64,000 nt of DNA from the sequence record OK148440; one strand, given 5' to 3'. A program made the position numbers and the translations under genes. Within the stretch, counting starts at the first letter, position 1. Each line of letters begins with the position of its first letter. The notes below the pieces were generated by a model. That model worked only from the letters and a program-made list of their open reading frames with translations. It had not been told where the DNA came from and did no database searches. Origin of the DNA: Escherichia phage MLP3. This document shows, piece by piece, positions 3,551 to 30,638 of this stretch.

Positions 3551-3862
3551 CTACTTCTCCACCACAAAGAGGTTAACTTCAATGAAAGTTTCGTATTGTG
3601 TTGACTCCTGCTTACGGGTGTAGTAGAAATGACGACCTTCTAATGCACCTCCGTACTGAGTGGCACATCTTTTAACCATCTCTTTTATCACATCTACAAC
3701 TGATTCGCCTTTCCACGGACGTAACCCCTGAGTTGGGACTTTTGCTGTACAGGTTACTTGTGTGTAACCTACATCTTGTAGAGATATCTCAAGAATCAGC
3801 TTTGCCCAAGCATCAAAATTAAGCTTGGGGTTATATTTAACTTCAGTTTTGATATCAATCAT
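3551..3862 (-). CDS. hypothetical protein
   Basis: 103-aa ORF directly downstream of polymerase gene with ATGA overlap. Confidence 0.5.
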   Translation of the reverse strand: MIDIKTEVKYNPKLNFDAWAKLILEISLQDVGYTQVTCTAKVPTQGLRPWKGESVVDVIKEMVKRCATQYGGALEGRHFYYTRKQESTQYETFIEVNLFVVEK

Positions 3863-5709
3863 TAGTGAGTATGATTCCAGTTTAATCCAATCTTACAATC
3901 TGATGCAAGAGGACATTCCATCTTGAGGTATTCCCCTGCTTTACGAACACATTCTTCAGTGAGGATACGAAGTTTGTTAACATCATCACGATGTACAGTG
4001 AACTGTCCTTCATCATGCATGTCAATAACCTTCGCACAACGAACACCATCCCGCTCAATCCATTTATTGAGGAATAGCATTGCATACTTCATAACAATCG
4101 CCCCAGCGCTCTGTAAGAGTGTATTTAAGGCTTTATGGACCATAACCTTTCCAGTTGCATCTCTTCTCATTGTAATACGACGTCCATCCACACCGTAGAT
4201 GTATCCACTTTGCGCTTTCTCTGTCATACGTTCAATAAGGATTGCAATACAAGGGTTCTCTGCTAAGAATCTTGCTCTCATGATAGCCCCTTCGTCAGAG
4301 CCACCACCTACAATACTTCCTAATTTAGCGTCACCTGCCCCATAGTTAAAGGCATATATAAACGTCTTAGCGTTATCACGAGTAGGAAGACCAGCAAGTT
4401 TTTGGTTATGTGAGTGAATGTCTCCTTCTAAAAGAATATCTCTGTACATAACAGCAGAAGCTAGACCACGTTCAGCTTCTCGTTTCTTAGCCGGGTTGTT
4501 TTCTCGCTCTGCTTCAGCGAGCATCTCACGACATTCTTTAATAAGGTAGTGAGCTAGCATCCTCAGCTCAAGACCAGAGCCATCGTAACCTAAGAAGATT
4601 TCACGACCAGCAGGAACATAGAACTTATAGGCACCTACAGGTTTGTCTTTCTTGCCCGGTTTTCCCACTTCGTAGATAATGTTAGTACCCTTTCGTACGT
4701 AACACCCATCAGGGATATGGTTGGTAATGATGAAAGGATGGTTATGACTATCGTCTGAGGAATAGTCAGATTGAAAAAGACTGCGGCACTCGTGACCAAA
4801 CAAACCGCGAGAAGGAATATTAACAACAATGCGATGTTTAAAACGAAATGTCGGAGTAGCGCAGCTATTAGCTTCGGCGGACAACTTACCATCTTTACGT
4901 TCCTTGTCGATAAGCCCGCTAATCAAACCTAGCCTGTGAGCCGCTACAACGCGTCTCTTAAGCAAACTTCCTACACCCCCTAGCTCACCCCCAAGCCCCT
5001 CTTCAAGAGTCTCCTCAAGGTTTGTAGGGGCTGTGGGCCACTTGTTTGATGTAGCCAAAGCTTTTTTGATTTCATCAAAGGTTACAGGTTTCTTCCTATT
5101 CGGATTAAGACCTAAACCACTGACGTAGGCTTTCATGTAGTTGACAGTGTGATAACGGAAATGTTTATCCAAAAATCTTCGGATATCAGCATCTATCATC
5201 TCCGCTGTCTGTTTCTCTTTAGCATTACCTCGAATCCAAGCAGAATACCATGCAGAGTATGTACCATACTTCTTCATAGCTCTACGGATTTCAAATGTAT
5301 TCCAAGGTTTCTTAGAATAATTCCACTCTGGAGGTATGAAGCCCTCATCCATCAAGGCTTCTTTAATACGTGCATCTTTCGATGGGTCGAAGTCTACATA
5401 CTCAACGCAAGTAAACGCCCCACCGATATCTTCTCTTTTAAGACCAACCCTATCGCAATAGAGCTGAGGCCACTTCTGTAAAGCACCTGATTTCTTAAAA
5501 GGCTTAGCATAAGTTGAACCATCCACCCGCATTTTAGGGAGGAGAGGAATCAGTTCTTTATCAATATTGACAATAATCTCTTTGAGAAGGTGAACAAACC
5601 ACCGAGCGTTTCTTCTGTTGAAGTTGACTCCATGCTTCGCTTGTTTTGAGATTATATCAGCGACTGTCATCTCCGTTATGAAAGGTAACTTATCAGGGTT
5701 ATCCATCAC
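3862..5709 (-). CDS. DNA polymerase, family A polymerase domain (no exonuclease domain)
   Basis: Motif A DGSGLELRMLAHY, motif B RDNAKTFIYAFNYGAG, motif C VIDMHDE. Confidence 0.9.
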   Translation of the reverse strand: MMDNPDKLPFITEMTVADIISKQAKHGVNFNRRNARWFVHLLKEIIVNIDKELIPLLPKMRVDGSTYAKPFKKSGALQKWPQLYCDRVGLKREDIGGAFTCVEYVDFDPSKDARIKEALMDEGFIPPEWNYSKKPWNTFEIRRAMKKYGTYSAWYSAWIRGNAKEKQTAEMIDADIRRFLDKHFRYHTVNYMKAYVSGLGLNPNRKKPVTFDEIKKALATSNKWPTAPTNLEETLEEGLGGELGGVGSLLKRRVVAAHRLGLISGLIDKERKDGKLSAEANSCATPTFRFKHRIVVNIPSRGLFGHECRSLFQSDYSSDDSHNHPFIITNHIPDGCYVRKGTNIIYEVGKPGKKDKPVGAYKFYVPAGREIFLGYDGSGLELRMLAHYLIKECREMLAEAERENNPAKKREAERGLASAVMYRDILLEGDIHSHNQKLAGLPTRDNAKTFIYAFNYGAGDAKLGSIVGGGSDEGAIMRARFLAENPCIAILIERMTEKAQSGYIYGVDGRRITMRRDATGKVMVHKALNTLLQSAGAIVMKYAMLFLNKWIERDGVRCAKVIDMHDEGQFTVHRDDVNKLRILTEECVRKAGEYLKMECPLASDCKIGLNWNHTH

Positions 5710-5722
5710 CCACTCCTTATAG

Positions 5723-6076
5723 TTATTGGTATATTAAGTCTGTGAATGCTTGGTTGTCTTCAACAATATCTAAAGCTTCATATGAATCAGCCAATTCATC
5801 CACATAAAAGACTGCTGGAATATCTTCTGCTCGCTGTCTACGAGATTCCCTTTGTTCATTGATATTTCTTTGAACCTGTGCAAGTTTCATACCCCACACC
5901 TGCTCATACAACTCTGGATATTTGTCACTAACCACTACATAGTTTCGAGCTGGTTGGTTTCTATTAATCTTCGCTGTCAACTCAATAAACTGGCGAAACT
6001 CTTGAATAGAGAGGTTGTCATGAATATTATCCCATTTGAGAACGCAGTGACGTTCTAGGCGTTGAGGTACTGGCAT
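5723..6076 (-). CDS. hypothetical protein
   Basis: 117-aa ORF in minus-strand array. Confidence 0.5.
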   Translation of the reverse strand: MPVPQRLERHCVLKWDNIHDNLSIQEFRQFIELTAKINRNQPARNYVVVSDKYPELYEQVWGMKLAQVQRNINEQRESRRQRAEDIPAVFYVDELADSYEALDIVEDNQAFTDLIYQ

Positions 6077-6079
6077 AAC

Positions 6080-6349
6080 TTACTCCACTGTCGGGAATGG
6101 TTTTAGGTTGTTCATGGCTGTACGAACATCAGCACAGATTTCAGGATCACGATAAGAGAGGAATTTACCATCCTTACCACGAATCATTACATTAGTCCGT
6201 GCTGTTTTATTAGGCAATAAAGAAATCCCTCCAATAAGATGGTTGGTAGGGTGTTGTCCTTGATTAACCTTGTAGTCATGAGTCTGAGCGTCACCATTAA
6301 AGAGATGATCACGAATTTGGATTAAGCTAATCTTCATATTATGCACCAA
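6080..6349 (-). CDS. hypothetical protein, tandem paralog (ARTNV-RG-DGKF-S-RD family)
   Basis: Shares NKTARTNVMIRGKDGKFLSYRD...NLKPFP with adjacent gene. Confidence 0.5.
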   Translation of the reverse strand: MVHNMKISLIQIRDHLFNGDAQTHDYKVNQGQHPTNHLIGGISLLPNKTARTNVMIRGKDGKFLSYRDPEICADVRTAMNNLKPFPTVE

Positions 6350-6626
6350 AGTTAGGGAAAGGTTTCAGATTTTCAATAGACTTAGCAATACGCTTAGGAA
6401 CAGCCTTATCACGGAAGGAGATGAACTTTCCATCAGGACCACGAAGGGCTACATTAGTACGAGCTGTTGTTTTGTTAAACTGAATCATCTCAACAGAGCT
6501 TGTAACATTTTCTACAGGAAAAGTATAGCTCTCAGTTGTGTTCAGAGAAGGGAGGAAATCAGTTACAGTGATGTAAGTTACTTTAGACATATTTATTACC
6601 TTAGGTTCTATAAAAGAAAAGGCCAC
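6339..6626 (-). CDS. hypothetical protein, tandem paralog (ARTNV-RG-DGKF-S-RD family)
   Basis: Shares KTTARTNVALRGPDGKFISFRD...NLKPFP with adjacent gene. Confidence 0.5.
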   Translation of the reverse strand: MAFSFIEPKVINMSKVTYITVTDFLPSLNTTESYTFPVENVTSSVEMIQFNKTTARTNVALRGPDGKFISFRDKAVPKRIAKSIENLKPFPNFGA

Positions 6627-6645
6627 CCGAAATGGGTAGCCTTAT
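6611..6645 (-). terminator. intrinsic terminator-like hairpin
   Basis: Minus strand GGCTACCCATTTCGGGTGGCC followed by TTTTCTTTT downstream of 6647..6964. Confidence 0.4.
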
Positions 6646-6646
6646 A

Positions 6647-6964
6647 TCAACTTGAGCTTAAAGCTCCTTTGCGACCGCCTGCTGATTTTCCAGCACGATC
6701 TCCACTTTTGCCGCCGTTCGAGCGATTTCGAGAGACTGATTCAACACGTAAGTTACTTGACGCATTAGAACCTCCCGACTTGATTGATCGTTTGTGTCCA
6801 ACATCTTTACCTCGGACAGCAGCTTTTCCATCGCGCTTTTCAACGATGCGACGTGCACGGTGGCGCTGAGCATCTCCGCTCTTGCTACCAACGCCGGTCT
6901 CACCCCTTGCGATTGCAGTTCTTCGTTCTTGTGCATAATCACGTTTCGCCTTATCGGTCATCAT
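6647..6964 (-). CDS. basic Gly/Ser/Arg/Lys-rich protein (possible nucleic-acid-binding)
   Basis: ATGATG preceded by strong SD AAGGAG; third-codon composition resembles neighbouring genes better than the overlapping 6658..6942 frame. Confidence 0.45.
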   Translation of the reverse strand: MMTDKAKRDYAQERRTAIARGETGVGSKSGDAQRHRARRIVEKRDGKAAVRGKDVGHKRSIKSGGSNASSNLRVESVSRNRSNGGKSGDRAGKSAGGRKGALSSS

Positions 6965-7008
6965 AACTCCTTAATATATCAGTGTACACTAAGGAGTATA
7001 CATTATGT

Positions 7009-7746
7009 TTATGATTTTTCAGATTCCATTGCTTTAACAATAGCTTTACAGAAACCTGAACGAACAATATCATCTGATTCGCCATCTACTAGAGCGGCAA
7101 ATTCAAATAACTGGTGACGGTAGATGAAATCAGTAGCCCAATCAAGACCGCTCTCACCACGCATGTCGTGCTGGTTAGTGTCCCCCATGCAGAACATCTG
7201 AGAGGTTTCACCAAGACGTGTCATGATTGAATATGCTTCATCAGGAGTAGTGTTCTGGAACTCATCAACAATCACGATAGCATCGTTGAACGAGCGACCA
7301 CGTAGATATTCCAGAGGTACGAACTCAATATTACCATTACCTACTTGACATTCGTAGAAACCTTTACCGTAGCGCTGAGTAATAACATCAACGATTGGCA
7401 TTAGGTATGGTTCAAACTTCTCACGAAGCCCACCGGGAAGTAATCCAAGACTATTACCCATACCAACAGCAGGTCGGCTTAGGATAATCTTCTCAATCTT
7501 CCCACTCTTCAGAGCATCGATCACTGTAGAAGTGATTACGAAGGTCTTACCACATCCAGCAGGAGCATCTGTGAATACAACCTGTTTTGTTTTGATTGCA
7601 TCAAGCAATTCACTCTGGAATTGGTTCTGAGGTACTACCGGCTTAGCAAGAACTACTTCTTCAAATTCCCGCTTTCCTTTCTTGGTGACGAGAGCTTCAC
7701 GACGTAATTCTCTCCGTGATGCTTTCCGAGATTCTCTACGACTCAT
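7009..7746 (-). CDS. phoH: PhoH-like ATPase
   Basis: Walker A APAGCGKT, LSRP, LLPG...EKFEPY, VIVDEFQN motifs. Confidence 0.85.
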   Translation of the reverse strand: MSRRESRKASRRELRREALVTKKGKREFEEVVLAKPVVPQNQFQSELLDAIKTKQVVFTDAPAGCGKTFVITSTVIDALKSGKIEKIILSRPAVGMGNSLGLLPGGLREKFEPYLMPIVDVITQRYGKGFYECQVGNGNIEFVPLEYLRGRSFNDAIVIVDEFQNTTPDEAYSIMTRLGETSQMFCMGDTNQHDMRGESGLDWATDFIYRHQLFEFAALVDGESDDIVRSGFCKAIVKAMESEKS

Positions 7747-7924
7747 TTCCTACCTCCGTGTTCTTCATATAAGAAGCTACAGGATTTACACTCTGAGCAA
7801 TGGATACCTATAACCTTAATTTCGACAAACTTCTTATTCTTCCCTTTAGTCGGGGAGCCTTTGGCAAGCTCCCGTATTACTTTCGAGTCCAAATGGAGAA
7901 GAGTTGATTCACATTTAAAACATT

Positions 7925-8245
7925 TCAGATTGATTTGTCCTTATGTAAACGGTATACTTCAGTAGCCATACAAGCTATACGCTCGTCATGTGGGAGATGC
8001 ATACCAGTAGAGCCGTTCCATCCTTCGAACTCTGAATCAAAGAATCCAATAGGCTCGGGATACATCTCTTGCAAGGTGGTTAAGTCATCAGCCACTTGTT
8101 GCCATTTATCGTCAGACCAGATTGGGTCATCCAACCAATAATACAAATAGGAGTGGATAAGCATCTGTGTTCTATGTCGTTTAATCACTTCAGCAGGACT
8201 GATTTCATTTCCGTTACCAGTCCTAAATGTATTATTGTTGATCAT
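7925..8245 (-). CDS. hypothetical protein
   Basis: 106-aa ORF. Confidence 0.5.
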   Translation of the reverse strand: MINNNTFRTGNGNEISPAEVIKRHRTQMLIHSYLYYWLDDPIWSDDKWQQVADDLTTLQEMYPEPIGFFDSEFEGWNGSTGMHLPHDERIACMATEVYRLHKDKSI

Positions 8246-8721
8246 TCCAAAACCCTTTCTTCTAAATCATAAAAGATTTGATTTGTCCCATTATTCTCAA
8301 CAAGCACTGTTCCATTATCTAGCAGGGTAGCAACTTGGGAATAAGGAATGTTCTTTAACATCAGAGCATTAATGGTCGGCTTGTTTTTGAAGTAAGCGAC
8401 AGGCTCAACATAGAAGGAAATCCCACGACTTCCTTTAATTGGGGTGCTTGAAGATAGAACCCAAATTGTTTCTGGCTTGTCTATTTCCTTTTCAACACCA
8501 ACCTCAACAAGCGAGTCAGCAGCGAAACCTACAGGACGACTAGAAGAGCCAAGCGCCCGAATAAATCCCGGTAATTTTGACATATTAGACCAACTACCAG
8601 TGTTTTCATTAAACACAGGTCTTACATCACCATATGCCCAAACCAGATTATCATAGTCACGGGCTATGTATTTGGTCCAATCAGGAACATCATACTCTCT
8701 TCCTTCAAAAATAGCTTTCAT
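8242..8721 (-). CDS. hypothetical protein
   Basis: 159-aa ORF. Confidence 0.5.
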   Translation of the reverse strand: MKAIFEGREYDVPDWTKYIARDYDNLVWAYGDVRPVFNENTGSWSNMSKLPGFIRALGSSSRPVGFAADSLVEVGVEKEIDKPETIWVLSSSTPIKGSRGISFYVEPVAYFKNKPTINALMLKNIPYSQVATLLDNGTVLVENNGTNQIFYDLEERVLE

Positions 8722-9030
8722 TTAGATAACCTTGTGCTTGTAGATGCTAGGGTTGAAGTAATGCAACCAGTTTATGTATTGTTTCTGTTCAAGGTAGTGT
8801 CTGCAATCATGACAAAAAGCATGACCCAAACCTGTTTCCTCGTTCAGCTTGAAGTTGATAAGAAGCTTCTGCTTTTGACAGAAGCTACATGCTTTAGTGG
8901 GCTTCACGTAGTGCATCCCATGAGATTGGGAAAAGTTTACGAAGCTCTTCATCAACAGTTGATGCGAACACTCGTACTTCATACTGAGCATGGTCGGACA
9001 GTCGCTGACGACATAACTCTGACCAGCCAT
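8722..9030 (-). CDS. Cys/His-rich small protein (start uncertain; overlaps 3' end of thyX)
   Basis: CSFCQ...CHDCRHY zinc-finger-like motifs; no convincing SD at any candidate start. Confidence 0.35.
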   Translation of the reverse strand: MAGQSYVVSDCPTMLSMKYECSHQLLMKSFVNFSQSHGMHYVKPTKACSFCQKQKLLINFKLNEETGLGHAFCHDCRHYLEQKQYINWLHYFNPSIYKHKVI

Positions 9031-9544
9031 ATAAAGAACCTGTCCACACCCACTCAGTGATCATACCTTGAGGTAGAACGAATCGGGCTTGCTCTGGAGC
9101 AATAAACTTAATCAACTCATCATATGACTCAAGAGCTGTTTCATATGCCCGATTAATCAGAACTAGTGCAGAGTTTTGCGCTCCTGTGGTGAGGAGATTC
9201 CCCGCACCTGCATGGAGGTCCGAAGGTCTTTCAAAAATCTCTTTAGGGATGAAGAGTTCAACTGCTCCATCTTTATACCGCCGGGACATTTCGTTCCACG
9301 AGAATCCAACTTGATGCTTGCCCAGCTGTCTCGCAATTGCGATTGGCGCTTTGCATCGGAAGCTAATTGTCGGATGGCGGAATGGTGTGACATGCTTTTC
9401 TCTGGCAAGGAACTTGATAAGGCGTTCATCTCGTTCATTTAACTCTCCTTCACGAGTAACCCCAAAGGAAACTCGAGCTGCATTAACAACAGATTTATCA
9501 GAACCCATTGCTTCAATTAGTGTTGCTTGTAATTGTTCGTTCAT
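8894..9544 (-). CDS. thyX: flavin-dependent thymidylate synthase ThyX
   Basis: ThyX signature RHP(x)...S and SRRY (RHR-x7-S-like motif). Confidence 0.8.
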   Translation of the reverse strand: MNEQLQATLIEAMGSDKSVVNAARVSFGVTREGELNERDERLIKFLAREKHVTPFRHPTISFRCKAPIAIARQLGKHQVGFSWNEMSRRYKDGAVELFIPKEIFERPSDLHAGAGNLLTTGAQNSALVLINRAYETALESYDELIKFIAPEQARFVLPQGMITEWVWTGSLYGWSELCRQRLSDHAQYEVRVFASTVDEELRKLFPISWDALREAH

Positions 9545-9558
9545 CCTTGAATTCTTCC

Positions 9559-9774
9559 TTAGTAATGAATCTTTTTATAAATCAGGTTGCTTCCACTTTC
9601 TGTTTCAATCCCTTTCTGGATTGTAATCTTAGAAGCACCGGTATTAGCAATTTTTAAAGCTCGTTTAAAGCGGCGAGCCTCTCTCCGTGTTGTGTATGAG
9701 GAGAAGCTAGGGATTGTACTATCAAAATTAAACCACTTAACTACCCAAAAAGTAATCCAAGGTTTCTTTTCCAT
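9559..9774 (-). CDS. small basic protein, paralog family A (TRQEAR...KK...Y-Cterm)
   Basis: Similar to 11431..11646 and 11646..11858 (W-rich N-term, RREARRFKRALK, C-terminal KKIHY). Confidence 0.5.
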   Translation of the reverse strand: MEKKPWITFWVVKWFNFDSTIPSFSSYTTRREARRFKRALKIANTGASKITIQKGIETESGSNLIYKKIHY

Positions 9775-9775
9775 A

Positions 9776-10105
9776 TTAAATACCTTTCAGAGCTATATCT
9801 AAAAACGCACGGAGGTTTGATTCAGTTTGCATACCGGACAAGCTGTAGTGAGCACCACTGTTCATATTAGGAACTACAAAGGCTGGGATACTACGAACAC
9901 CGTATTCAACAGCTCGCTCTCGACCATCACCTTCAGTGATATTCACTTCTTCAACCTCTACGTTGTAATCAGCTACAACTTTCTTAAACACAGGAGCCAT
10001 AGCTGCACAGGGTGCACAGGAATTACTATAAAACTTAATAACTTTACTCATTCTATTCCTTGTTAATAAACAGATTGATATGACGCTGGGTAGCAGGAAC
10101 AACAA
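9776..10105 (-). CDS. thioredoxin-like protein
   Basis: CAPC active-site motif, SIPAFVV strand, about 109 aa. Confidence 0.65.
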   Translation of the reverse strand: MLFLLPSVISICLLTRNRMSKVIKFYSNSCAPCAAMAPVFKKVVADYNVEVEEVNITEGDGRERAVEYGVRSIPAFVVPNMNSGAHYSLSGMQTESNLRAFLDIALKGI

Positions 10106-10228
10106 TAAAAGACTTATACTGCCCTTTTGCTAAATCATGGGCAATCTTCTTCGTCTGACCAAGACCCATTACACAGCCACTAACGATAATGGCATGTGCT
10201 TGTAGCTCTTCAGGGAGGCTTAATTTCA

Positions 10229-10450
10229 TTATGCAGTCCACAGGTGGAGAAGGAAAGGAATCACAACAGAGAAGACTACCAGAGCAATGCTGCCATGTTT
10301 AATGGGTTTAGCGTCATTCGGGTTCTCTTTAAGCATCTGTTTCTGAGCTACATAAACGATACCGCCAACAAAAATTGCCCATACAGACCATACGATTGCT
10401 GAAAACATACTCATATCCTTATAAAGAAGTTCGCCCCACCTCTTGAACAA
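10229..10450 (-). CDS. small membrane protein
   Basis: Two hydrophobic segments (FSAIVWSVWAIFVGGIVYV; IALVVFSVVIPFLLHLW). Confidence 0.4.
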   Translation of the reverse strand: MFKRWGELLYKDMSMFSAIVWSVWAIFVGGIVYVAQKQMLKENPNDAKPIKHGSIALVVFSVVIPFLLHLWTA

Positions 10451-10471
10451 AGAGACAGGGCGGAGGTTTGA

Positions 10472-11047
10472 TTAGTAAGACACGTCACCACTGGAGTGGG
10501 ACATGTTGCTCTTGACGAAGTAACAGAACTTGCCAAGACCTTCATTAATTTCTTGAAGCATACTCTGATCAACTGGATAGGTGCACAAGTCTGAATCAAA
10601 CTCGTCCATCTTCTCAATGATACACATAAGAGTCATGCACATGTCGGAAAGCATACCGTCCATGTCGAGATCAGCGTTACCTTCTCGGAACCAAGCGTGA
10701 CCTAAATAGTTACTAGCAGTGGCATCCACCTTAACACAATGGAAGCGCATACGCTCTGCTATTCGGTCGCCTGCCTCACGGGCATAATCTTCTAGTTCAT
10801 CGAACATACCATGAACACCTTGGAAACCAGCTCCAGAGACGTTCCAGTGGTAGTTCTTTGCTTTGATGTGTAGAAGTTCAAGGTTAGCCTGCACACCACA
10901 AAGAATGTGCTCTAGGCTGTTACTGCTAATCAGTTTATTCATTCCCTCAAGACGAGAGATAGAAGAATCAGTAGTAGAGAATGGATTACTAGAACCCACT
11001 CTTGTTAGTTCTGGTAAGTCGAAGACATTATTATGCATTAGGTGCAT
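10472..11047 (-). CDS. Dps/ferritin-like protein
   Basis: HWNVSGAGFQGVHGMFDE resembles the Dps ferroxidase-site helix (HWNV...F...H...DE). Confidence 0.55.
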   Translation of the reverse strand: MHLMHNNVFDLPELTRVGSSNPFSTTDSSISRLEGMNKLISSNSLEHILCGVQANLELLHIKAKNYHWNVSGAGFQGVHGMFDELEDYAREAGDRIAERMRFHCVKVDATASNYLGHAWFREGNADLDMDGMLSDMCMTLMCIIEKMDEFDSDLCTYPVDQSMLQEINEGLGKFCYFVKSNMSHSSGDVSY

Positions 11048-11378
11048 CCCCTTCTAAGTTAGTTGAATTAGCTACATTACGAGCAATGTTATCCATGACC
11101 TGCTGTGTAATAACAATGCAATTCTGAGGGTCTACCGATTTAGAACGCCCCATCTCAGGGTCATAGACTTTGACTCGCTTGGCTGTTGAGCCAGTAACTT
11201 GCAACACTTTGAGAAGATAACCTTGGTTTCCAATAGACCATGCAACAACATCACGATTCTTGATATAACGACCAAGCATATCACGATGATAGAACTGCTG
11301 CATAACTTTAGCTTTGCTAATCTCTTCAGATGGCGGGGCCACTTTACTCAAATCTAACATAACTCTCTCCTGTTTCAT
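11031..11378 (-). CDS. hypothetical protein
   Basis: 115-aa ORF. Confidence 0.5.
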   Translation of the reverse strand: MKQERVMLDLSKVAPPSEEISKAKVMQQFYHRDMLGRYIKNRDVVAWSIGNQGYLLKVLQVTGSTAKRVKVYDPEMGRSKSVDPQNCIVITQQVMDNIARNVANSTNLEGDAPNA

Positions 11379-11430
11379 ACAATATTCTTATACTGTATAT
11401 ACATTTGAGAGTTATCATATCTACTACCAA

Positions 11431-11646
11431 CTAGTAATAAACCTTGCTGGATATGAATCCAGCACTGTTATGGATATTTTCAATCCAACGATGAATCTCC
11501 ACCTTTTCAGCGATTCCTAAAGCTTTTGTAGCTTTTATAGTTTTCTTAGCAAGACGAGCCTCTTGTCTTGTGTTGAATAATTGAATACAATCACCACCAA
11601 GAGTTTTGTTAGCCCATTTAGTACGAACTGCCCATAATTTATCCAT
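11431..11646 (-). CDS. small basic protein, paralog family A
   Basis: WAVRTKWANK...NTRQEARLAKK...SKVYY; tandem with 11646..11858. Confidence 0.5.
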   Translation of the reverse strand: MDKLWAVRTKWANKTLGGDCIQLFNTRQEARLAKKTIKATKALGIAEKVEIHRWIENIHNSAGFISSKVYY

Positions 11647-11858
11647 TAGTAATGTACCTTTCCGCTGATATAGAAACGACCTGATTTAAAGTCTTGAGCT
11701 TTGTGGATAGTGATCTTATTAATTGTGCTTTCACAACTTAATAAGAACTTCTTATGAGCGCGAGCTTCTTGACGGGTATTCCTAATACCCATTGACTCTG
11801 TACCACTGCTCCAGTGAATACGAACTACCCAACGTCTTTTCATTGTTCCAAACTCCAT
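11646..11858 (-). CDS. small basic protein, paralog family A
   Basis: WVVRIHW...NTRQEARAHKK...GKVHY. Confidence 0.5.
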   Translation of the reverse strand: MEFGTMKRRWVVRIHWSSGTESMGIRNTRQEARAHKKFLLSCESTINKITIHKAQDFKSGRFYISGKVHY

Positions 11859-12049
11859 TATCTGTCAACCGATTTAGGGACAAACTGCATTACACAGACC
11901 TGACTACGAGGGAGATTTATTTCACAAGCGGCTCTTCTCGTCTCAATCTTAACGCTAGAATCTGGACCAACGTTAGATATAAATACTCCCATAGCAAATG
12001 CCCCAACTACAAAACCTATAGCTAAGTAAGTAGCTTTTTCTTCTTTCAT
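11858..12049 (-). CDS. small membrane protein
   Basis: N-terminal hydrophobic helix LAIGFVVGAFAMGVFI. Confidence 0.4.
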   Translation of the reverse strand: MKEEKATYLAIGFVVGAFAMGVFISNVGPDSSVKIETRRAACEINLPRSQVCVMQFVPKSVDR

Positions 12050-12054
12050 CTTGG

Positions 12055-12588
12055 TTATACACCCTTAGATGCAACTACACCATTACTGCCGTTGTATCGA
12101 CCCTTCACTGCATAAGAGTCATCACCAGCGTGAGAGTGTTCGAACATAACCATTTGACCAACACGCATCCCAGCACGAACTCGTAAGCTATGATTATGGG
12201 TAACGTTATGAAATTCAAAGGTTAGTTTACTGCTGTTAAACCCTGCATCAGCCCAACCAGCATGGAGGTGGTTTAAACCACAACGAGCCATTGAGGAGCG
12301 AAGTACAAACAGGCTTGAGATGTTATCTGGAAGGTTAAACTCTTCCATTGAGTGCGCTAAGAAGAATTGCCCCGGAGTGATAACAATACCATCTTCAGGG
12401 ATTTTTACTTCTTTCCACTTGAGGTTTTCTTTAGCATCAATGTCAACAATTCCGTCAGCCTGTTCTTCAACAAGGATAGTATCACCAATACGGATATCCA
12501 CGCTAGCAGCGTTAACATATTTATGCTCCGCATCTAAAAAGCCATTATCAATAACGCTGTGTAATTCTTGAGAACCTAAAAGACTCAT
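12055..12588 (-). CDS. dcd: dCTP deaminase
   Basis: dCTP deaminase/dUTPase-fold motifs VDIRIG, GWADAGF, GRYNGSNG. Confidence 0.8.
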   Translation of the reverse strand: MSLLGSQELHSVIDNGFLDAEHKYVNAASVDIRIGDTILVEEQADGIVDIDAKENLKWKEVKIPEDGIVITPGQFFLAHSMEEFNLPDNISSLFVLRSSMARCGLNHLHAGWADAGFNSSKLTFEFHNVTHNHSLRVRAGMRVGQMVMFEHSHAGDDSYAVKGRYNGSNGVVASKGV

Positions 12589-14036
12589 GAGTTTCTGTTT
12601 CCTTGTACAGATGATGCCAAATTATTAATCATGTTACGAGCTGTTTCACGAGATAGTGTAACACCTGCTAAGTTGTTATGAAGCTCACCAGATAGCTCAC
12701 GAGCAGCAGCTCGAAGTTCTGTACCAAGTGTAGTATCGGAGTGAGCCAAACCATTACGACGACTATAAGGTCGAGGAGCTTCGTTAGCGTCATTAGCCAA
12801 TGATGCAAAACCAATACGAGCAGCTTCACGAGCCGCTATAGTTGACACTCGATCTTCCGTAGGGGTTGGCAAATCACCAACTTCTACACGTTCTATATCA
12901 CCAGCACGTAGACCCTGAGCGACTGAGCTTACTGTTTCCCATGAACGACGAGAACGCTGTAAATCACCCATTGACGGAGAAGGAATAGGACGAGCAGTTC
13001 CTCCTTGGACATGCCATGTACGAGTATCCATTCCAGAAGAGCGTGCACTACCAAAACTGCCAGTGAAAGTGTCACGAGGTGCCATTGTAGGAGGAACTGC
13101 GAATCTTTCCTGTTGCCAAGAATCGCGTCTGTTAGTTCCCGGAGTCCAAGGTTGTTCAATTGCTTCAGCACCGATAGTAACTAATCCACTAGACCATTCT
13201 GTCTGTAGGTTAACTTCTTCATCAAGATAAATACGACCCCTTTCCTGAGGAATATTTAATGCAACCTCCATCATCTTCAGGGTATAATGACGACGTTGAT
13301 TCTGGTATAAGTTTACACCAGCCATAGGTCCAACTAACTCACTGATTGGATAAACTTCTGGCTCACCAAAAGCACCCATCGCAAGGTGCATGTATTCGGT
13401 AGAACTGCTATAAACTGCAACAGTTGCTTCAGGCCACTTTTTGTAGACATACTTCATTTCACGGCCTGTCACCACAGGGATAGAATCAGTATATGCCATT
13501 GCAAACAAACCTTCGTTTGACACATACATATCATTAAGAGTCATAAATCCTTGACAGATCATAGGGAAACGACGACTCAAAGTATCCATATCCAAAGGTA
13601 GATTAATCATCATCTGGATTTTAACTTGATCAATCTCAATTTCCAGAATCTCTTGGAAAGTGAAAAGTGATTCAGTATAGGTTGTTCCACTGATAGGCTG
13701 AACTAAGCGAGATGTGGTTTGAAGTCCTTTACTTTCTGTCCAAGATAAGAAGTTGTCAAGGAAAAGTGCAGCATTACCTGCGTTAGCAGGGCTGTTTTCC
13801 TGACGAGTGTTCCAACGAAACCCTCCTTGAACTAGGAAGATATCAACATCATTCGGAGTTCGATTTTGGAAGAACGTATCACGGATAGCACCACCTGCAA
13901 TAACAGGATAGATGCCATCAGGAACTACGTTGTCTCTGATCAGATTGCGAATCAGATCAAGCCCTACGCTGAGGGCTTCTCCTTCTTGAAGGTTTAATTC
14001 AGACAATGGAATCTTAATCATTTCTACATTTTCCAA
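12585..14036 (-). CDS. Pol-beta superfamily nucleotidyltransferase (CCA-adding/polyA-polymerase-like head domain)
   Basis: IAGGAIRD ... DVDIF matches the GG-x-VRD / DxD motif of tRNA nucleotidyltransferase head domains; C-terminal 250 aa low-complexity. Confidence 0.55.
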
Positions 14037-14572
14037 TTTAGAGATGGGGGATTCTTATAATCAAATCCAGCCATTTGACAAAGACACATGTAAACTTTAA
14101 CTGTCAAGTTAACGTCTTGCTCACAATAGGCGAACATGTCTTCAGTGAATGCGTCCCATGCCTCCTCCTGTTCTCCATAATCTCCTTTCAGCTCCCCAAG
14201 AAACTCGCCCCATTGTTTGAGGCCGTGACCACGAGGGCCATGTCTAGGGTCGCCTTTGGGGTATTCTGGACTATCACCAATACGGTCAGGCTTGAGATAT
14301 CTACTCAGGCACAAAGTATCGAAGACGTTAAAGCGAAAAGGTATCACATGAGAATAAAACTTAAACAAAGCAGGAAGGTCAAAATCAATAATATTGTGAC
14401 CTATTACTACATCAGCTTCTTTCAGTTTGTGTAGTGCTTCTTCAATTTGGTGAGGGCGATACCCCCACCGCTCTCCAGATAATACATCAAATATCCAGAT
14501 ACACCAGACATTCTGAATACCATCATAGAGATTATCCCCCTCAATATCAAACGCATACAGTTTCTTTACCAC
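14024..14572 (-). CDS. DEDDy 3'-5' exonuclease (stand-alone PolA proofreading domain)
   Basis: Exo I FDIEGD, Exo [11 protein letters not shown], Exo III YCEQDV. Confidence 0.8.
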
Positions 14573-16356
14573 GGACGTGCCTCCCCTTCTTGTGCAAGTA
14601 AGGAAGCTGCATCCTCTCCATTGGTAACGGTAAAAGGATGCTCTTCATCAACTTCATGATCTTCTCGTTCTACAAGACGACCTGTTTCATTGATGTATTT
14701 GGTATAGCAAACCCCTGTCTGTCCATAGTTACGCTCTTTGAGCAGTCGTATGATTGACAAGTTTTTACCTAACCCATCCGCTTGTTTGTTACGTTCAAAA
14801 CCAATAATACACTGACACCAGCGCATCAATGAACGTGAACCAGTAAACTGTACTTCTTTAACCTGACCACCTTCTTCGTGGGGTGCACCACCTGCCGGAG
14901 CGTTCAAGTGAGATAATACAAAAGCAGTGAAGTCTAATTCCTTACACATACCAGCAAGCTCTGAAGCAATCTTGCTGATTTCTGTGTTTACCTCAGATGG
15001 GGTTAAGTGAGATACCAATGCAGTGATGTTATCAAGAATGATAAATTTACACTGATTCTCAACTACCCAAAAGCGAATACACTGCTTAATGTCTTCCCAC
15101 TCGTTCTGCCCAAAGTTGTCATACAAGAAAAACTTATCAGCGTATCGAAGTGCTTCATCTCGTAGCTGGCTTTCTTCGTACTCAACATCCGGTCGGTGGA
15201 ATGGAATAGATGCAGATTTACCTGCAATGTTCTTAACAGACATGCCTACCTTCTCTTCCAAGAAGAAGCCACCACCATTAAAACCATGCTCAAGGCAAAG
15301 CCATGCTACTAGTTCGTGTGCGATTAAGGTTTTACCTGAACCAACACCACCGCCGATTGCAACCATCTCTCCCCAACGAATACCAAAGGTCATGTCGTTA
15401 AGAGTTTTCCACGGATAAGGAATACCCCATTCCGCTTTCTTCAGAGCATCTTCGAGGCAATCAAAAACTGTAACAGCGCCGGCAGGAGATTCCCGCTTAG
15501 CTGAATACTTCAGATTGTTGAAAAGCTCTTGACCTCTCCCTGCAAGTAACATGTCGTTTGCATCTTTGATTTCCTTTTCTTGTCCGTTATAAGTGAACGT
15601 ACCTTTTGGAATCCTTGCAAACTTAACATGCGGGTACAGAGAACGACCCTTAGTTAAAGCAATCTCACCTGCATCATCATTGTCCATGCAGAGTACAATC
15701 TCCTCGAAACCATTAATAAAATCACGGTTTCTTGATAATACAGAAGAGATTGAACCTGCACCGAACGGAAGAGAGACGCAAGCAGGTTTGATGTTAGTTG
15801 CGTTTGTAAACGCGGTAAGTACGTGGAACCCAGACATACAAGAGAGAGGATCTTCAAAGATGAAGAGTTTCTTGTTGTATACGTCACCACGTTGTGCTTG
15901 AGCCATACCAAACAAGTCGGCTTCTTTCACATTACCTACATAATAGAACTTCTTGCTGTCTAGAAGTTTTACTTCATATCCAACAATGTTCCCATCACGT
16001 TCACGAGGGAAGAAGTAGCTGTCAGGAGTTTGACCATCTGTTTGGCTTAAACCGATACGGCATCCATAACGTTCAGATACAGCTTTAGGAATTAAGCGAC
16101 GAGTCAACTCTCCCTGAGGAAGCTCTAAGCAATCGTCTAAGACTTCTCGGAGTTCTTCAGGGGACAGCTCTTTCTTTTCATTAGGAGTGGGCGTCGTTCC
16201 TTTCTCGAAGATTTCATACGCACCACATCTGTTACATGAACCCCACTCCTCACCGGACTCTTCATTTCGGAAGAGAATCATGTGATTGCGGGTCTTATCA
16301 CGACCATGAGAGATACACTCTTTACAGCCTGTGTCTCCCAAAATGATCTTTGACAT
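14566..16356 (-). CDS. primase-helicase (T7 gp4-like; zinc-finger + TOPRIM + DnaB-type helicase)
   Basis: N-terminal CKEC...CNRCG zinc ribbon; Walker [10 protein letters not shown]; helicase motif SHLN. Confidence 0.85.
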
Positions 16357-16391: not shown

Positions 16392-16598
16392 TTAGTAAAA
16401 CGATCGTATTTCTTCCCACACATCATCTTGCAAGTTTCTAAAACCCTGCAAGGTTTGCTTTGTTCTGTGAATAAATTCTTCAGAGTGCTTATCAGGTGTG
16501 AGCATACTGACAAACTTTTCATAGCGATTAATCTTCCACCGCATCTTCAAGTAGTCAGATTCCAGCTTTCTTAACTTCTGCCTGTCAGTTACTGTCAT
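16392..16598 (-). CDS. small hypothetical protein (ORF 16392..16694 trimmed to internal ATG)
   Basis: ATG at 16598 with AGGTGAGAAGG upstream; longer form overlaps the GGCT-like gene by 110 nt. Confidence 0.35.
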   Translation of the reverse strand: MTVTDRQKLRKLESDYLKMRWKINRYEKFVSMLTPDKHSEEFIHRTKQTLQGFRNLQDDVWEEIRSFY

Positions 16599-17016
16599 CC
16601 TTCTCACCTGCCAGATATGCTGTCCAGTCACCAGATTCAACCAGAACATCTTGTTCTTCGTCGATGTGATAAATCCATGCTTCCACAGTTTCACCGCTAT
16701 CCAATAATACTGGAATCAGCGTACGCTTGTAAAAGGTGTATGGGTTATCATTACCACGATGACCTTCTAGACCGTCATACGGACCTTCCAGACCAGCTTG
16801 GGTTGTTTCAAAGACTTCTACACGAACAGGCTTACCATTGCTATCATGCTCCAAAGATACACTTGGGAAGTATGCTGTGCAATACTGATACAGGTTACAG
16901 TTGTTGACTGTCCACCCTTCACCAATAGACACACCACCTGCACGAGCGTTGATAGCGTGGTTGTGTTGACCTTTACGAAGAGAACCATACGTTGCAACTA
17001 ATACTTTATCAGACAT
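16585..17016 (-). CDS. gamma-glutamyl cyclotransferase-like (AIG2/GGCT fold) protein
   Basis: N-terminal VATYGSLRKG motif characteristic of GGCT/AIG2-like proteins; about 143 aa. Confidence 0.6.
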   Translation of the reverse strand: MSDKVLVATYGSLRKGQHNHAINARAGGVSIGEGWTVNNCNLYQYCTAYFPSVSLEHDSNGKPVRVEVFETTQAGLEGPYDGLEGHRGNDNPYTFYKRTLIPVLLDSGETVEAWIYHIDEEQDVLVESGDWTAYLAGEKDDSN

Positions 17017-17020
17017 TACA

Positions 17021-17218
17021 TTACCTTTTGTTTAAGATTTCTTTTGTACAAGAAGTCCCGTTACACACGAGAATTGTTTGAGTTACAGAATCGACAACCG
17101 TTACATGACTGCCACATTGAGTTATGATTTGACCTCTCCCTGAATCTTTAGAGATACACTCATCAGCGGCAATTGCTGATACGCTGAACAAGGAGAGTAG
17201 GAGTAGAATCTTTTTCAT
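17021..17218 (-). CDS. small secreted Cys-rich protein
   Basis: Signal-peptide-like N-terminus MKKILLLLSLFSVSAIAA; six Cys. Confidence 0.5.
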   Translation of the reverse strand: MKKILLLLSLFSVSAIAADECISKDSGRGQIITQCGSHVTVVDSVTQTILVCNGTSCTKEILNKR

Positions 17219-17224
17219 GGCAGC

Positions 17225-17641
17225 TTACCAATCATATTCGAAACCAGAATAGCCGGAGAAGAGGATTGATCGGATTGTCTTTTCAGGAAATTCTTCAAAA
17301 CTTTCCTTAATAGCCCCCTTGGTTTCATCAGACACTGATCCTTTTTCACCAAACCAATATTCTCCAAAAATGTCAGAGAAGGTATAGGTTCGATATTTTT
17401 CCAAGTAGTAACAACCTTCCACCGCATCGGTAACCTCCTCACTGATGACACAAGAAGCTACAGGGAAAAGTGAGCTGTGCTCCATAAACAAACACCAACG
17501 ATTAAAGAGAGGAATCTCTTCATCTTTCAGAAGACTTTCTAATTCTTCCTTTGCCTCTTTCTTGTGCTTCTCAAAGAGGTTTTTGGAATACTCTACATCT
17601 AAGATATGGCTTTTAAACATATCCAGTTTATTGTCAACCAT
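17225..17641 (-). CDS. hypothetical protein
   Basis: 138-aa ORF. Confidence 0.5.
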   Translation of the reverse strand: MVDNKLDMFKSHILDVEYSKNLFEKHKKEAKEELESLLKDEEIPLFNRWCLFMEHSSLFPVASCVISEEVTDAVEGCYYLEKYRTYTFSDIFGEYWFGEKGSVSDETKGAIKESFEEFPEKTIRSILFSGYSGFEYDW

Positions 17642-17698
17642 TTTACAACCTCCAGTTAAATTCGAACTAGCCCCCTCTTTCGAAGAGGCTAAAGCAAA

Positions 17699-17884
17699 TT
17701 ATTCTACTTCGAAGTGTTTGATCACACCAGTCAGTACATCAGATTGGAACGTACCTACTAGCTCTGTACCTCGGAAAAAGTTAACACTTGTTCCAAGTGA
17801 TTCAAAGCGATCTGCTTGAATGTCCAGAGATTGAATATTTCCTTCTGCTGACATTGTACGAAACATGATTGTGTATTTATTCAC
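17699..17884 (-). CDS. hypothetical protein
   Basis: 61-aa ORF. Confidence 0.4.
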   Translation of the reverse strand: MNKYTIMFRTMSAEGNIQSLDIQADRFESLGTSVNFFRGTELVGTFQSDVLTGVIKHFEVE

Positions 17885-18123
17885 AGACTTGTTACTCCCT
17901 TATCTGCTTGTGCAATTGCGATGATACGCTCAGCACATTCCATTGAATATTTATCACCTCGTTTGAGGAAGGTGATGATTGCAGAGAACTGATTACCAAT
18001 CATTCTCTTATTTGTGATACCGAACTCTTCACAGAGTTGGTTGATAGCTTTACGAGAGCCTACAATCAGAGGCTCTTTTTCTTCGGTCATTCCACGGCTG
18101 ATCAAATCTTCGATAGACAACAT
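17881..18123 (-). CDS. hypothetical protein
   Basis: 80-aa ORF. Confidence 0.45.
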   Translation of the reverse strand: MLSIEDLISRGMTEEKEPLIVGSRKAINQLCEEFGITNKRMIGNQFSAIITFLKRGDKYSMECAERIIAIAQADKGVTSL

Positions 18124-18149
18124 TACAAATTCCTTTTTGTTTAATTTAA

Positions 18150-19385
18150 TTACAGAGTTACTGCTACTTCGCTACCCTCAACATTGACAGACTCTAACTT
18201 GCGAGGGTTATGAATCTGGACTGGATTGACCGGAACGTTCCAACCACTGCGGTAGAAGTTACGACCATCACAGAACAGGATGACATTGGCAGACATTGCA
18301 TTCGGTTGCAGGTTGTTGTGGACATGACGGATATTTGCAATCCAGTAGCCACGAGACAAAGTGTAGCCAGTAGGTGCATTACGAATAGTTTGAGTATTCA
18401 TCTGACCTTCCAGTTGCATTTCTTCAGGAACCACATCAACTGAATCAATCGGCTGTGCTACTTGTCCTTCCAGTGCAAAGTTTTCATCATCAGCACTTTC
18501 AATATCATCCACCAACTCACCGTCTCCATCTTCAATCGGAGTCTGGTAAACCACTTTATACTGAGGAGTATAGAGAGGGTTTTGAGCTTTAACAAACTCA
18601 AGAATGTTATGACGGTAGGTATCCAGAGTTGTACCAGTCAGGCCCGGTGCTGTATTAACTTCCAGTACCCACGCTTCTTGACCTTTGGTGATAATATCAA
18701 CTGCACCGAAATCCAGACCCATTGATTCAACAGCTTTCACTGCATTGATCAGAGAGGCGTCATTCGGAGCATCTGTGAAGGAGCTTGAGTAAACCCAGCC
18801 AGTGTGGTGATTACGAATATCTTCACGATAGTTAGGGTCTTCGCGATAACCATTGCGACGAATCTTCTTCTGAACATAGGTGATTACACCTTTGAACACA
18901 TGGACACGCCACTCACGACGTGGGCCTTGAATGCCTTTAGTGTACAGTTCAGCTCGACCAAGACCATCACCCGGTTCTACAACAACAATGCCCGAACCAG
19001 AGTGACCAGTCAGCTCATGGCGCTCATACACAATATTACCAGTGTTTGACCACTCTTGAGCAGTCTCTTGAGCATCTGTGTATTCCACAGTTTTAACACC
19101 TGCTTGGTCCATCACGCTGAAAGCACGACGTTTGTTCGCTGCCATATGTAAGGCTGCGGTACGGTTAAGGACGGTTGCAGAACCAAAGAATGATTCAGGA
19201 TAGCGACGGTTCCCGTAGTTAACAACCACATCACCTTCACGAGAACGCCAGCGGCTATTCTCTGAAAGAAGACCCATCACGTTAGCATTGATGCGTTCAT
19301 CACGGATAGTATCACTGATAGCAGATACTAGAGCGTTAACAGAATCAGACGGGCCATACGGAAGAACACGGATACGAGTAGTCAT
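18150..19385 (-). CDS. ATP-grasp family ligase
   Basis: ATP-grasp signature WVLEVNTAPGLTG and glycine-rich ELTGHSGSGIVVV. Confidence 0.7.
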   Translation of the reverse strand: MTTRIRVLPYGPSDSVNALVSAISDTIRDERINANVMGLLSENSRWRSREGDVVVNYGNRRYPESFFGSATVLNRTAALHMAANKRRAFSVMDQAGVKTVEYTDAQETAQEWSNTGNIVYERHELTGHSGSGIVVVEPGDGLGRAELYTKGIQGPRREWRVHVFKGVITYVQKKIRRNGYREDPNYREDIRNHHTGWVYSSSFTDAPNDASLINAVKAVESMGLDFGAVDIITKGQEAWVLEVNTAPGLTGTTLDTYRHNILEFVKAQNPLYTPQYKVVYQTPIEDGDGELVDDIESADDENFALEGQVAQPIDSVDVVPEEMQLEGQMNTQTIRNAPTGYTLSRGYWIANIRHVHNNLQPNAMSANVILFCDGRNFYRSGWNVPVNPVQIHNPRKLESVNVEGSEVAVTL

Positions 19386-19387
19386 TT

Positions 19388-19618
19388 TTAGATACCTTTT
19401 AGTTTAAGAATTTCGTTACGACAGGATTGAATTTTAGCTTCGATTGCCCAATACTCAGCGAACATTTCGTCTTCTTGGTCATCGCTTGGAGAGTCGATTA
19501 AGTTAAAAGCAAACGGATACAGCTTTCGCTGCTCCGTTACCAGTTGTTGAAGTCGGAGTTGTTGATACTCCAGCATTGTCAGGTGAGGCTTAGCTCCCTT
19601 GCTTGACATGAGGCTCAA
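19388..19618 (-). CDS. hypothetical protein
   Basis: 76-aa ORF. Confidence 0.45.
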   Translation of the reverse strand: MSLMSSKGAKPHLTMLEYQQLRLQQLVTEQRKLYPFAFNLIDSPSDDQEDEMFAEYWAIEAKIQSCRNEILKLKGI

Positions 19619-19823
19619 CTTTAATCCCCTTCATTTTAACATAGTCAGCCAACACGTTATTGATAACGGTTGGAAAAGGGATTTCTACTGGAGAGTCAAC
19701 CAGCTTCCCAATACCTTCTTGCATCCACTTCTGGATTGCTCGGAGGTTATCACATCCTGTGCTTGTCATCGGAATACGGCGGGTAGTTACCACGTTATCC
19801 AACATCAGTTTACGAACTTCCAT
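19590..19823 (-). CDS. hypothetical protein
   Basis: 77-aa ORF. Confidence 0.45.
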   Translation of the reverse strand: MEVRKLMLDNVVTTRRIPMTSTGCDNLRAIQKWMQEGIGKLVDSPVEIPFPTVINNVLADYVKMKGIKVEPHVKQGS

Positions 19824-19834
19824 AACTATACCTC

Positions 19835-21868: not shown

Positions 21869-21945
21869 TTTCTAATCCACCTGAAGGGTAAACCCTTTCA
21901 TCTAATTAACCTTTAAATGCGCCCTGTATAAGAGCGCCCGTTGTG

Positions 21946-23669: not shown

Positions 23670-23678
23670 AATATCACC

Positions 23679-30551: not shown

Positions 30552-30627
30552 TGTGGTGCACCCTACAGGACTCGAACCTGTAACCAACGACTTAGAAGGT
30601 CGCTGCTCTGTCCGTTGAGCTAAGGGT
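30552..30627 (-). tRNA. tRNA-Arg (anticodon UCU)
   Basis: 76-nt cloverleaf folded by hand: acceptor GCACCCT/AGGGTGC, D-stem GCTC/GAGC, anticodon stem GCGAC/GTCGT with loop CTTCTAA, T-arm ACAGG-TTCGAGT-CCTGT, encoded CCA. Confidence 0.9.
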
Positions 30628-30638
30628 GCTGAATTTGT

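Follow-up and report, generated by a model that had tools for sequence, protein, structure and literature searches.

Escherichia phage MLP3 encodes a family A DNA polymerase and, several kilobases away, a small protein carrying the motifs of a proofreading exonuclease; the question raised by this locus is whether the two products act together as one replicative enzyme. We analyzed a stretch of 64,000 nt of this phage (record OK148440; hereafter the window), and all positions are numbered on this whole stretch. A sequence-only reading of the window had described a 615-aa polymerase with no exonuclease of its own and a separate 182-aa exonuclease-like protein, and had proposed either that proofreading is supplied in trans or that the exonuclease acts in another pathway, such as recombination or repair. 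The two open reading frames (ORFs) on which it relied, 3862..5709 and 14024..14572, are indeed present, both of them on the minus strand, which had not been stated. We consider it likely, with a probability of about 0.75, that the replicative polymerase of this phiEco32-like (Gordonclarkvirinae) podophage is a T7-gp5-type family A enzyme made as two chains, which would form a non-covalent holoenzyme and proofread in trans. This reading builds on features that were observed directly: the domain content of the two proteins, their intact catalytic motifs, a break point in the domain linker, a gene order shared by relatives, purifying selection on the genes and a deep clade of polymerases lacking the exonuclease domain.

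A family A polymerase with no exonuclease domain

The polymerase gene (pol) is more likely to begin at ATG 5706 than at GTG 5709, one codon upstream, because a TAAGGAG Shine-Dalgarno sequence lies 6 nt upstream of this ATG and relatives are annotated from it. The product would then have 614 rather than 615 aa, and pol motif residues are numbered here on the 614-aa protein (Table 1). Residues 363-612 match the Pfam family DNA_pol_A (PF00476) with an E-value (E) of 1.7e-23 and a score of 83.7 bits, against a cut-off of 34.3 bits, and the whole protein matches positions 837-1233 of the PHROG 17 (DNA polymerase) profile. The best match among PDB sequences was T7 gp5 (phmmer, E 1.8e-33). An AlphaFold2 (AF2) model of the protein had a predicted local distance difference test (pLDDT) score of 90.3, and the top 27 matches of this model in a Foldseek search of the PDB were all T7 gp5 chains (E about 1e-25, TMq about 0.59).

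In an alignment of 46 sequences, residues D375, L379, E380, L381 and R382 of motif A, R443, K447 and Y451 of motif B, and H564 of motif C were invariant; D565 and E566 of motif C were nearly so. With motifs A, B and C intact, a profile score above the curated threshold and a T7 gp5-like fold, the protein is a family A polymerase, as the sequence-only reading had it, and it is the length of 615 aa that probably needs correcting. A Pfam scan of the pol protein gave no match to the exonuclease family PF01612, and a hidden Markov model (HMM) of the exonuclease family, described below, had no match in this ORF even when filters were off and E-values up to 10 were admitted. The canonical N-terminal 3'-5' exonuclease domain is not found on this chain, in agreement with the earlier claim.

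A separate exonuclease-like gene next to the primase-helicase gene

The small protein (exo) matches the Pfam family DNA_pol_A_exo1 (PF01612) marginally, with 24.7 bits against a cut-off of 23.6 bits. It also matches PHROG 38876 (E 1e-66) and PHROG 403 (E 4e-37), both named 'DNA polymerase exonuclease subunit', and positions 670-826 of the PHROG 17 profile, directly before the stretch matched by pol. When an HMM built from 35 standalone homologs of the small protein was run, with filters off, against all stop-to-stop frames of the window, the exo ORF was the only match (E 9e-92). Among PDB sequences, exo matched only T7 gp5 (E 5.6e-8, gp5 residues 4-142). The AF2 model of exo (pLDDT 92.7) had T7 gp5 as its top 27 Foldseek matches in the PDB, after which came, for the most part, exonuclease domains from family B polymerases and from further members of family A.

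Residues D9, E11, H59, N60, D65, Y149 and D153 are invariant in the 35 standalone homologs, in LUZ24 gp25 and in T7 gp5, which bears out the earlier identification of Exo I, Exo II and Exo III motifs in this protein. To judge from sequence and modeled fold, the product of 14024..14572 is a T7-gp5-type DEDDy 3'-5' exonuclease of the PolA proofreading type. It is not an RNase of some other kind, which would have counted against the sequence-only reading: in sequence as in fold, it is matched best by the exonuclease domain of T7 DNA polymerase.

As had been noted, the exo gene lies beside a primase-helicase gene. The two overlap, the GTG of exo beginning 7 nt within the end of the helicase gene (GTGGTAA) and being preceded by GGGGAGG, and exo is predicted to be translationally coupled to the primase-helicase gene. 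At its C-terminus the gp4-like helicase has an acidic tail whose last residue is aromatic (14566..14660, minus strand). T7 gp4 has an acidic tail ending in Phe, which binds gp5, and we take the C-terminal tail of the window helicase to resemble this gp5-binding tail.

The two products are colinear with T7 gp5

Joined end to end, exo and pol are colinear with residues 1-704 of T7 gp5. The junction falls after the gp5 sequence FPPEIDFT, at about residue 197-200, which is the linker that joins the exo domain to the pol domain, and it leaves no surplus residues. T7 gp5 is the best solved-structure match for both proteins and has the same catalytic motifs; it differs in being a single chain of 704 aa that uses host thioredoxin, whereas the window encodes two chains, three insertions in pol and a thioredoxin gene of its own. 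At the place of the T7 thioredoxin-binding domain (84 aa), pol has a loop of 61 aa (residues 58-118), compared to 27-47 aa in marine fused relatives. The distance from the exo stop codon to the pol ATG is 8,317 nt, close to the earlier estimate of about 8 kb.

We propose that exo and pol reassemble non-covalently into a T7-like heterodimer or holoenzyme, which would probably be joined by the gp4-like helicase and possibly by the phage thioredoxin. Mismatched 3' ends produced by the pol subunit would then be excised in trans by the exo subunit.

Alternatively, the two halves might be rejoined, by a split intein, trans-splicing or a programmed frameshift, or their separation might reflect an assembly or annotation artifact or a decaying pseudogene. 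Rejoining would be consistent with the homing-endonuclease insertions found inside the pol gene of relatives, with the use of the term 'exons' for the two LUZ24-type genes (PMC3890496), and with the exo frame being open for 24 codons upstream of its own GTG, within the helicase gene. However, the colinearity with T7 gp5 leaves no terminal residues for intein halves, both genes are equipped with a Shine-Dalgarno sequence and a start codon of their own, and no slippery heptamer was found close to where the helicase gene ends. In addition, the gap is occupied by about 25 conserved co-oriented genes, 115 phage records and many metagenomic contigs show the same architecture, a pol product of 69.1 kDa was detected in SU10 proteomics (PMC4281155), and purifying selection, described below, is strong. 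We therefore find explanations of this kind hardly credible. A split intein was rejected as a specific candidate since exo and pol are colinear with T7 gp5 with no surplus at the junction, as was a helicase-exo frameshift fusion, given the lack of a slippery heptamer and the Shine-Dalgarno sequence that exo has of its own.

Table 1. Positions of the polymerase and exonuclease genes, their motifs and neighboring features in the window
Feature	Position	Strand	Remarks
Pol-only T7-like family A DNA polymerase gene	3862..5706	minus	614 aa from ATG 5706
Motif A, DGSGLELR, residues 375-382 (D375, E380)	4561..4584	minus	pattern DxxxLExR
Motif B, RDNAKTFIYAFNYGAG, residues 443-458 (R443, K447, Y451)	4333..4380	minus	pattern RxxxKxxxYG
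Motif C, HDE, residues 564-566 (H564, D565, E566)	4009..4017	minus	
Insertion 1, pol residues 136-240 (~105 aa)	4987..5301	minus	predicted helical
Insertion 2, pol residues 313-368 (~56 aa), directly before motif A	4603..4770	minus	predicted beta-rich
Insertion 3, pol residues 393-421	4444..4530	minus	in 13 of 24 sampled pol-only proteins
Predicted standalone 3'-5' proofreading-type exonuclease, 182 aa	14024..14572	minus	counterpart of T7 gp5 residues 1 to about 198
Exo I motif, DIE (D9, E11)	14540..14548	minus	pattern DxE
Exo II motif, HNIIDFD (H59, N60, D65)	14378..14398	minus	pattern Nx(2-3)[FY]D
Exo III motif, YCEQD (Y149, D153)	14114..14128	minus	pattern Yx3D
T7 gp4-like primase-helicase	14566..16356	minus	stop codon overlaps exo start
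Block between pol and exo, 8,317 nt	5707..14023	minus	about 25 co-oriented genes
Phage thioredoxin, CAPC active site	9776..10054	minus	PHROG 22; inside the block
Terminator-like hairpin, 13-bp stem	10432..10462	minus (coding strand)	intergenic, between exo and pol
Terminator-like hairpin, 10-bp stem and T-run	6619..6643	minus (coding strand)	intergenic, between exo and pol

Close relatives share the split and keep exo under strong selection

The 10.7-kb exo-pol region is 98% identical in DNA sequence to that of Escherichia phages IME267 and vB_EcoP-101114UKE3 (UKE3). It is common to 115 phage records, and those nearest to the window come almost entirely from phiEco32-like E. coli podophages; the close relative SU7 is classified in Gordonclarkvirinae. 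The pol and exo proteins are, respectively, 99.7% and 98.9% identical to those of IME267/UKE3, the closest exo being that of EK010 (99.5%). In the records of these relatives the small protein is labeled "DNA polymerase" or "DNA polymerase exonuclease subunit".

Gene order in the phiEco32-like/Kuravirus-like phages (IME267, vB_EcoP-101114UKE3, SU7, ECBP2, Bas86-89, YF01 and phiEco32) is as in the window. The exo-pol gap is 8.3 kb in the window compared to ~9.0-9.2 kb in SU7 and Bas87, partly because the HNH gene of Bas87 is absent from the window. The pol gene is intact in the window, whereas it contains an endonuclease insertion in SU7, ECBP2, KBNP1711, PAS59 and Bas89. In the split polymerase there is no essential difference between the window and these phages.

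In several relatives (SU7, LUZ24 and KBNP1711), the endonuclease gene interrupts pol at its catalytic motifs. The break lies between H564 and D565 of motif C in SU7 (locus L083, 651..3102), and at residues 441-454, in motif B, in KBNP1711 (L004) and LUZ24 (L085, 17999..20305). No group I intron was detected around the insertions at the SU7 and LUZ24 loci by Rfam at the gathering threshold.

The ratio of nonsynonymous to synonymous substitution rates (dN/dS) against close relatives was 0.005-0.04 for exo, 0.02-0.055 for pol and 0.015-0.033 for the helicase; exo is therefore kept as strictly as the core replisome genes. In the comparison with Bas87 (L001), synonymous divergence (pS) was 0.37 for exo, 0.17 for the flanking helicase and 0.16 for pol, the exo proteins being 98.9% identical. 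The roughly doubled pS of exo hints at local mosaicism or recombination around this gene.

It could be argued that exo is mainly a structural or stabilizing subunit of the polymerase, or of a helicase-polymerase assembly, in which nuclease activity is dispensable; inactive exonuclease domains are kept for stability in some PolAs (PMC10201439). However, the five DEDDy residues, H59 and N60 of exo are invariant down to 32% identity, and this conservation, together with the low dN/dS, is the pattern expected of an active enzyme. A purely structural role is in our view very unlikely.

The split in the published record

The sequence-only reading apparently treated the split as new. It is already known, since it is annotated in the nearest GenBank relatives and discussed in several papers (PMC3517423, PMC9965538, PMC3890496). 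According to PMC9965538, exo and pol are separate in all Kuravirus-like phages and in their neighbors, and the split also occurs in 7-11, Privateer, Vp_R1 and BUCT695. The paper on phage tf reports separate exo and pol genes in all LUZ24-group phages (PMC3517423), and in LUZ24-type genomes the genes are labeled "DNA polymerase part I / part II" (PMC3890496). PMC3517423 cites Savalia et al. 2008 for the separation in phiEco32 and, on that citation, the split polymerase of this phage group has been annotated and in print since 2008.

The LUZ24-like Pseudomonas phages (Bruynoghevirus) have, like the window, a standalone exo gene overlapping the end of the helicase gene and a pol-only gene downstream on the same strand. 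They also share pol insertions 1 and 2 (see below), and their pol-only proteins cluster with that of the window, which thus has a split of the phiEco32/LUZ24 type in gene order, clade and insertions. They differ from the window in having a 2.3-kb gap with eight small genes, a genome of about 45 kb and no insertion 3, and identity to the window proteins is about 37-54% for pol and about 32% for exo. LUZ24 itself has an interruption of pol near motif B, whereas the window pol is uninterrupted.

Czernecki et al. 2023 presented an exo/pol fission in S-SBP1-like cyanophages as the first case among PolAs (PMC10201439); phiEco32 and LUZ24 go unmentioned there. In S-SBP1-like phages as in the window, a T7-like PolA is divided at the exo/pol boundary and encoded by two genes, the thioredoxin-binding loop is reduced in length, and the mechanism proposed is that the parts form a non-covalent complex corresponding to the intact enzyme. 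An AF2 complex of the S-SBP1 halves superposes on intact PolA (PMC10201439). The S-SBP1-like genes, however, are adjacent and overlapping as a result of a recent +1 frameshift, whereas those of the window are separated by 8,317 nt holding about 25 genes, belong to an old clade that has insertions of its own, and are not of the S-SBP1 type. Proofreading is supplied in trans in E. coli Pol III (alpha/epsilon), archaeal PolD (DP2/DP1) and phiKZ-like family B polymerases with a separate exo ORF (see PMC3201878 and PMC10201439), but these belong to other polymerase families with independent origins and provide a functional analogy only.

Distribution and origin of the split

Scanning IMG/VR with the exo alignment gave 80 loci. 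In the 11 closest (exo identity 95-42%; 8 from contigs of 76-97 kb and 3 from shorter contigs), the exo frame stands alone, with 169-206 codons. A helicase match was found upstream of exo in all 11, directly abutting it in most, and a pol match 6.8-9.6 kb downstream on the same strand in 7; in the other 4, of which 2 are short or truncated contigs, no pol match was found within the available flank. The next 69 loci (exo identity about 37-42%, contigs up to about 41 kb) are mostly T7-like and marine, and here exo and pol usually form one open frame, which had at least 500 codons or ran off the contig end in 60 cases. The helicase match lay upstream of the exo match in 66 of these 69 loci. The presence of the helicase upstream of exo in both split and fused loci indicates that exo kept the ancestral slot and that pol was displaced. 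The distance of pol downstream of exo ranges from 2.3 kb (LUZ24) to >9 kb.

In three of the 69 more distant loci (L014, L038 and L077) the frame is shorter and the pol match goes on in a different frame. In L014 (9617..11366), which is marine and T7-like, the exo frame has 244 codons and the pol match begins 431 nt downstream; in L038 and L077 the breaks are inside pol. Introns or sequencing errors could account for these loci, as could separate fission events of the adjacent, S-SBP1-like kind.

Of the roughly 110 best pol homologs (99% to 35% identity), most are full-length pol-only proteins of 490-620 aa, including those of LUZ24-like phages and Vp_R1, the remainder being fragments of 420-460 aa that span some three-quarters of the query. 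Fused proteins come only further down the list and align over about 60% of the query, and in long exo homologs the exo match is always N-terminal. A tree, built by neighbor joining (NJ) only, was made from a sample of 24 pol-only and 17 fused proteins that had been selected for their similarity to the window pol. The exo HMM was negative on all 24 pol-only proteins and positive on all 17 fused controls. The pol-only proteins formed one bipartition against the fused proteins in 200/200 NJ bootstraps, which favors a single old fission followed by the accretion of genes in the gap.

Gene order is also conserved on the other side of the helicase gene. Upstream of it, the window encodes COOH-NH2 ligase, amidoligase, GFAT-like, RimK-like S6 glutaminyl transferase and GGCT proteins (16585..25428, minus strand); LUZ24 gp16-gp22 follow the same order and are then succeeded by primase-helicase, exo and pol. 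This shows deep synteny between podophages of 45 kb and 76 kb.

The block between exo and pol and other features of the window

The genes that separate exo from pol encode PhoH-like and small ligase-like proteins, a thymidylate synthase (annotated as thyX/thy1 type in SU7), a thioredoxin, a DNA-binding protein, a dCTP deaminase and a 483-aa nucleotidyltransferase, along with many small ORFs. The phage thioredoxin is a candidate processivity partner of the polymerase, and a pairing of phage thioredoxin with the polymerase has been hypothesized for the relative Privateer (PMC7881722). We considered the 191-aa 'DNA binding protein' as a possible gp2.5-like single-strand DNA-binding protein and rejected it: it has no acidic tail ending in an aromatic residue, and its SU10 relative is annotated with a DPS domain.

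The 483-aa protein is encoded directly downstream of exo (12585..14036, minus strand). It matched PHROG 12715 ('nucleotidyltransferase') only and no Pfam family, and has a GGAIRD...DVDIF motif, which resembles the heads of CCA-adding/poly(A) polymerase enzymes; its C-terminal half is long and of low complexity. Of the 11 loci with a standalone exo, the 7 closest encode this protein, and neither 7-11 (L011) nor the more distant ones yielded it.

Two strong terminator-like hairpins lie in intergenic positions within the block (Table 1). Over the region, 18 terminator-like sites were observed vs. 9.9 expected from shuffles, and the authors of the SU7 genome annotated a single terminator between exo and pol, about as far upstream of pol as the hairpin at 6619..6643. 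A scan for sigma-70 promoters gave 18 matches vs. 30.4 in shuffled controls. In phiEco32, polymerase and nucleotide-metabolism genes lie in a cluster that is of the middle expression class (PMC8948821).

Elsewhere in the window, GC skew changes sign at ~40000..41000, where the coding strand switches from minus (early/middle genes) to plus (late/structural genes), in agreement with the divergent layout described for phiEco32-like phages. A lone tRNA-Arg gene (anticodon TCT) is located at 30554..30629 on the minus strand.

Proofreading in trans or an independent exonuclease

The second option of the sequence-only reading was that the exonuclease works apart from the polymerase, in recombination, repair, end processing or degradation of host DNA, which would leave pol to replicate without proofreading. 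The 8.3 kb between the genes, the terminator-like hairpins in this interval and the coupling of exo to primase-helicase rather than to pol would all be compatible with such a role, and standalone DnaQ-fold nucleases with other functions do exist, lower in the fold-search list. However, in both sequence and fold the proteins nearest to exo are, in every case, proofreading domains attached to the polymerase in T7-like PolAs, the two chains part exactly at the domain linker, and pol, wherever it was found, was in the same genome and on the same strand as a standalone exo. Moreover, PolAs generally need the exonuclease domain for stability, according to the authors of PMC10201439, and relatives encode a separate 5'-3' exonuclease for T7 gp6-type roles. 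Given that its near relatives are attached to polymerases and that it accompanies the pol-only gene, an independent role for exo seems unlikely.

Of the two options, proofreading in trans is thus favored, on the basis of the colinearity with T7 gp5, the invariant catalytic residues, the strong purifying selection and the co-occurrence of the two genes across a deep clade. Several points weigh against it. The Pfam score of exo barely exceeds the gathering threshold. The two hairpins mean that exo and pol may be separate transcription units, whose products would be made in unequal amounts. The window exo is slightly closer to fused marine exo domains (38-42% identity) than to the standalone LUZ24 exo (32-33%), so that it is the pol tree, and not exo, that supports a single fission. 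Finally, the literature consulted yielded no direct evidence of exo-pol association or of exo or pol activity for this clade, and we found in it no biochemically characterized member of the LUZ24/phiEco32/7-11 clade.

Insertions specific to the split polymerases and significance

The pol-only polymerases differ from their fused relatives by insertions. Insertion 1 has 72-110 aa in 24/24 sampled pol-only PolAs compared to 12-17 aa in 17/17 fused relatives, and insertion 2 has 28-60 aa in 24/24 vs. 4-12 aa in 17/17. The pol-only proteins in which both are found are phiEco32-, 7-11-, Vp_R1- and LUZ24-like, and the fused sample includes T7. Both insertions are confidently predicted modules, helical and beta-rich, respectively. 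Insertion 3 is restricted to 13 of the 24 sampled pol-only proteins, those closest to the window and including Vp_R1, and is absent from LUZ24-like phages. None of the three insertions has a Pfam match, insertions 1 and 2 giving only a sub-threshold match to DUF3201. The sampled sequences point to a strict co-occurrence of insertions 1 and 2 with the split architecture across the LUZ24/phiEco32/7-11 clade, of which we found no report in the literature.

One may speculate that insertions 1 and 2 are adaptations to the split, providing a docking or regulatory surface for a dissociable exo, or that exo is delivered by the primase-helicase, so that in either case proofreading in the large LUZ24/phiEco32/7-11 clade would be exchangeable and tunable and no fixed part of the replicase; we think this improbable.

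As a discovery, the split itself carries little weight, since GenBank already annotates it in the nearest relatives and several papers describe it. There is, however, a gap in the literature, in that the 2023 reclassification of PolAs (PMC10201439) overlooks the larger and older LUZ24-/phiEco32-/7-11-like clade, in which the two halves are kilobases apart. Phages of this clade grow easily on E. coli or Pseudomonas and are a convenient system in which to study a family A replicase with a separate proofreading subunit. They would also be suited to asking whether the clade-specific insertions in pol mediate proofreading by a separate subunit.

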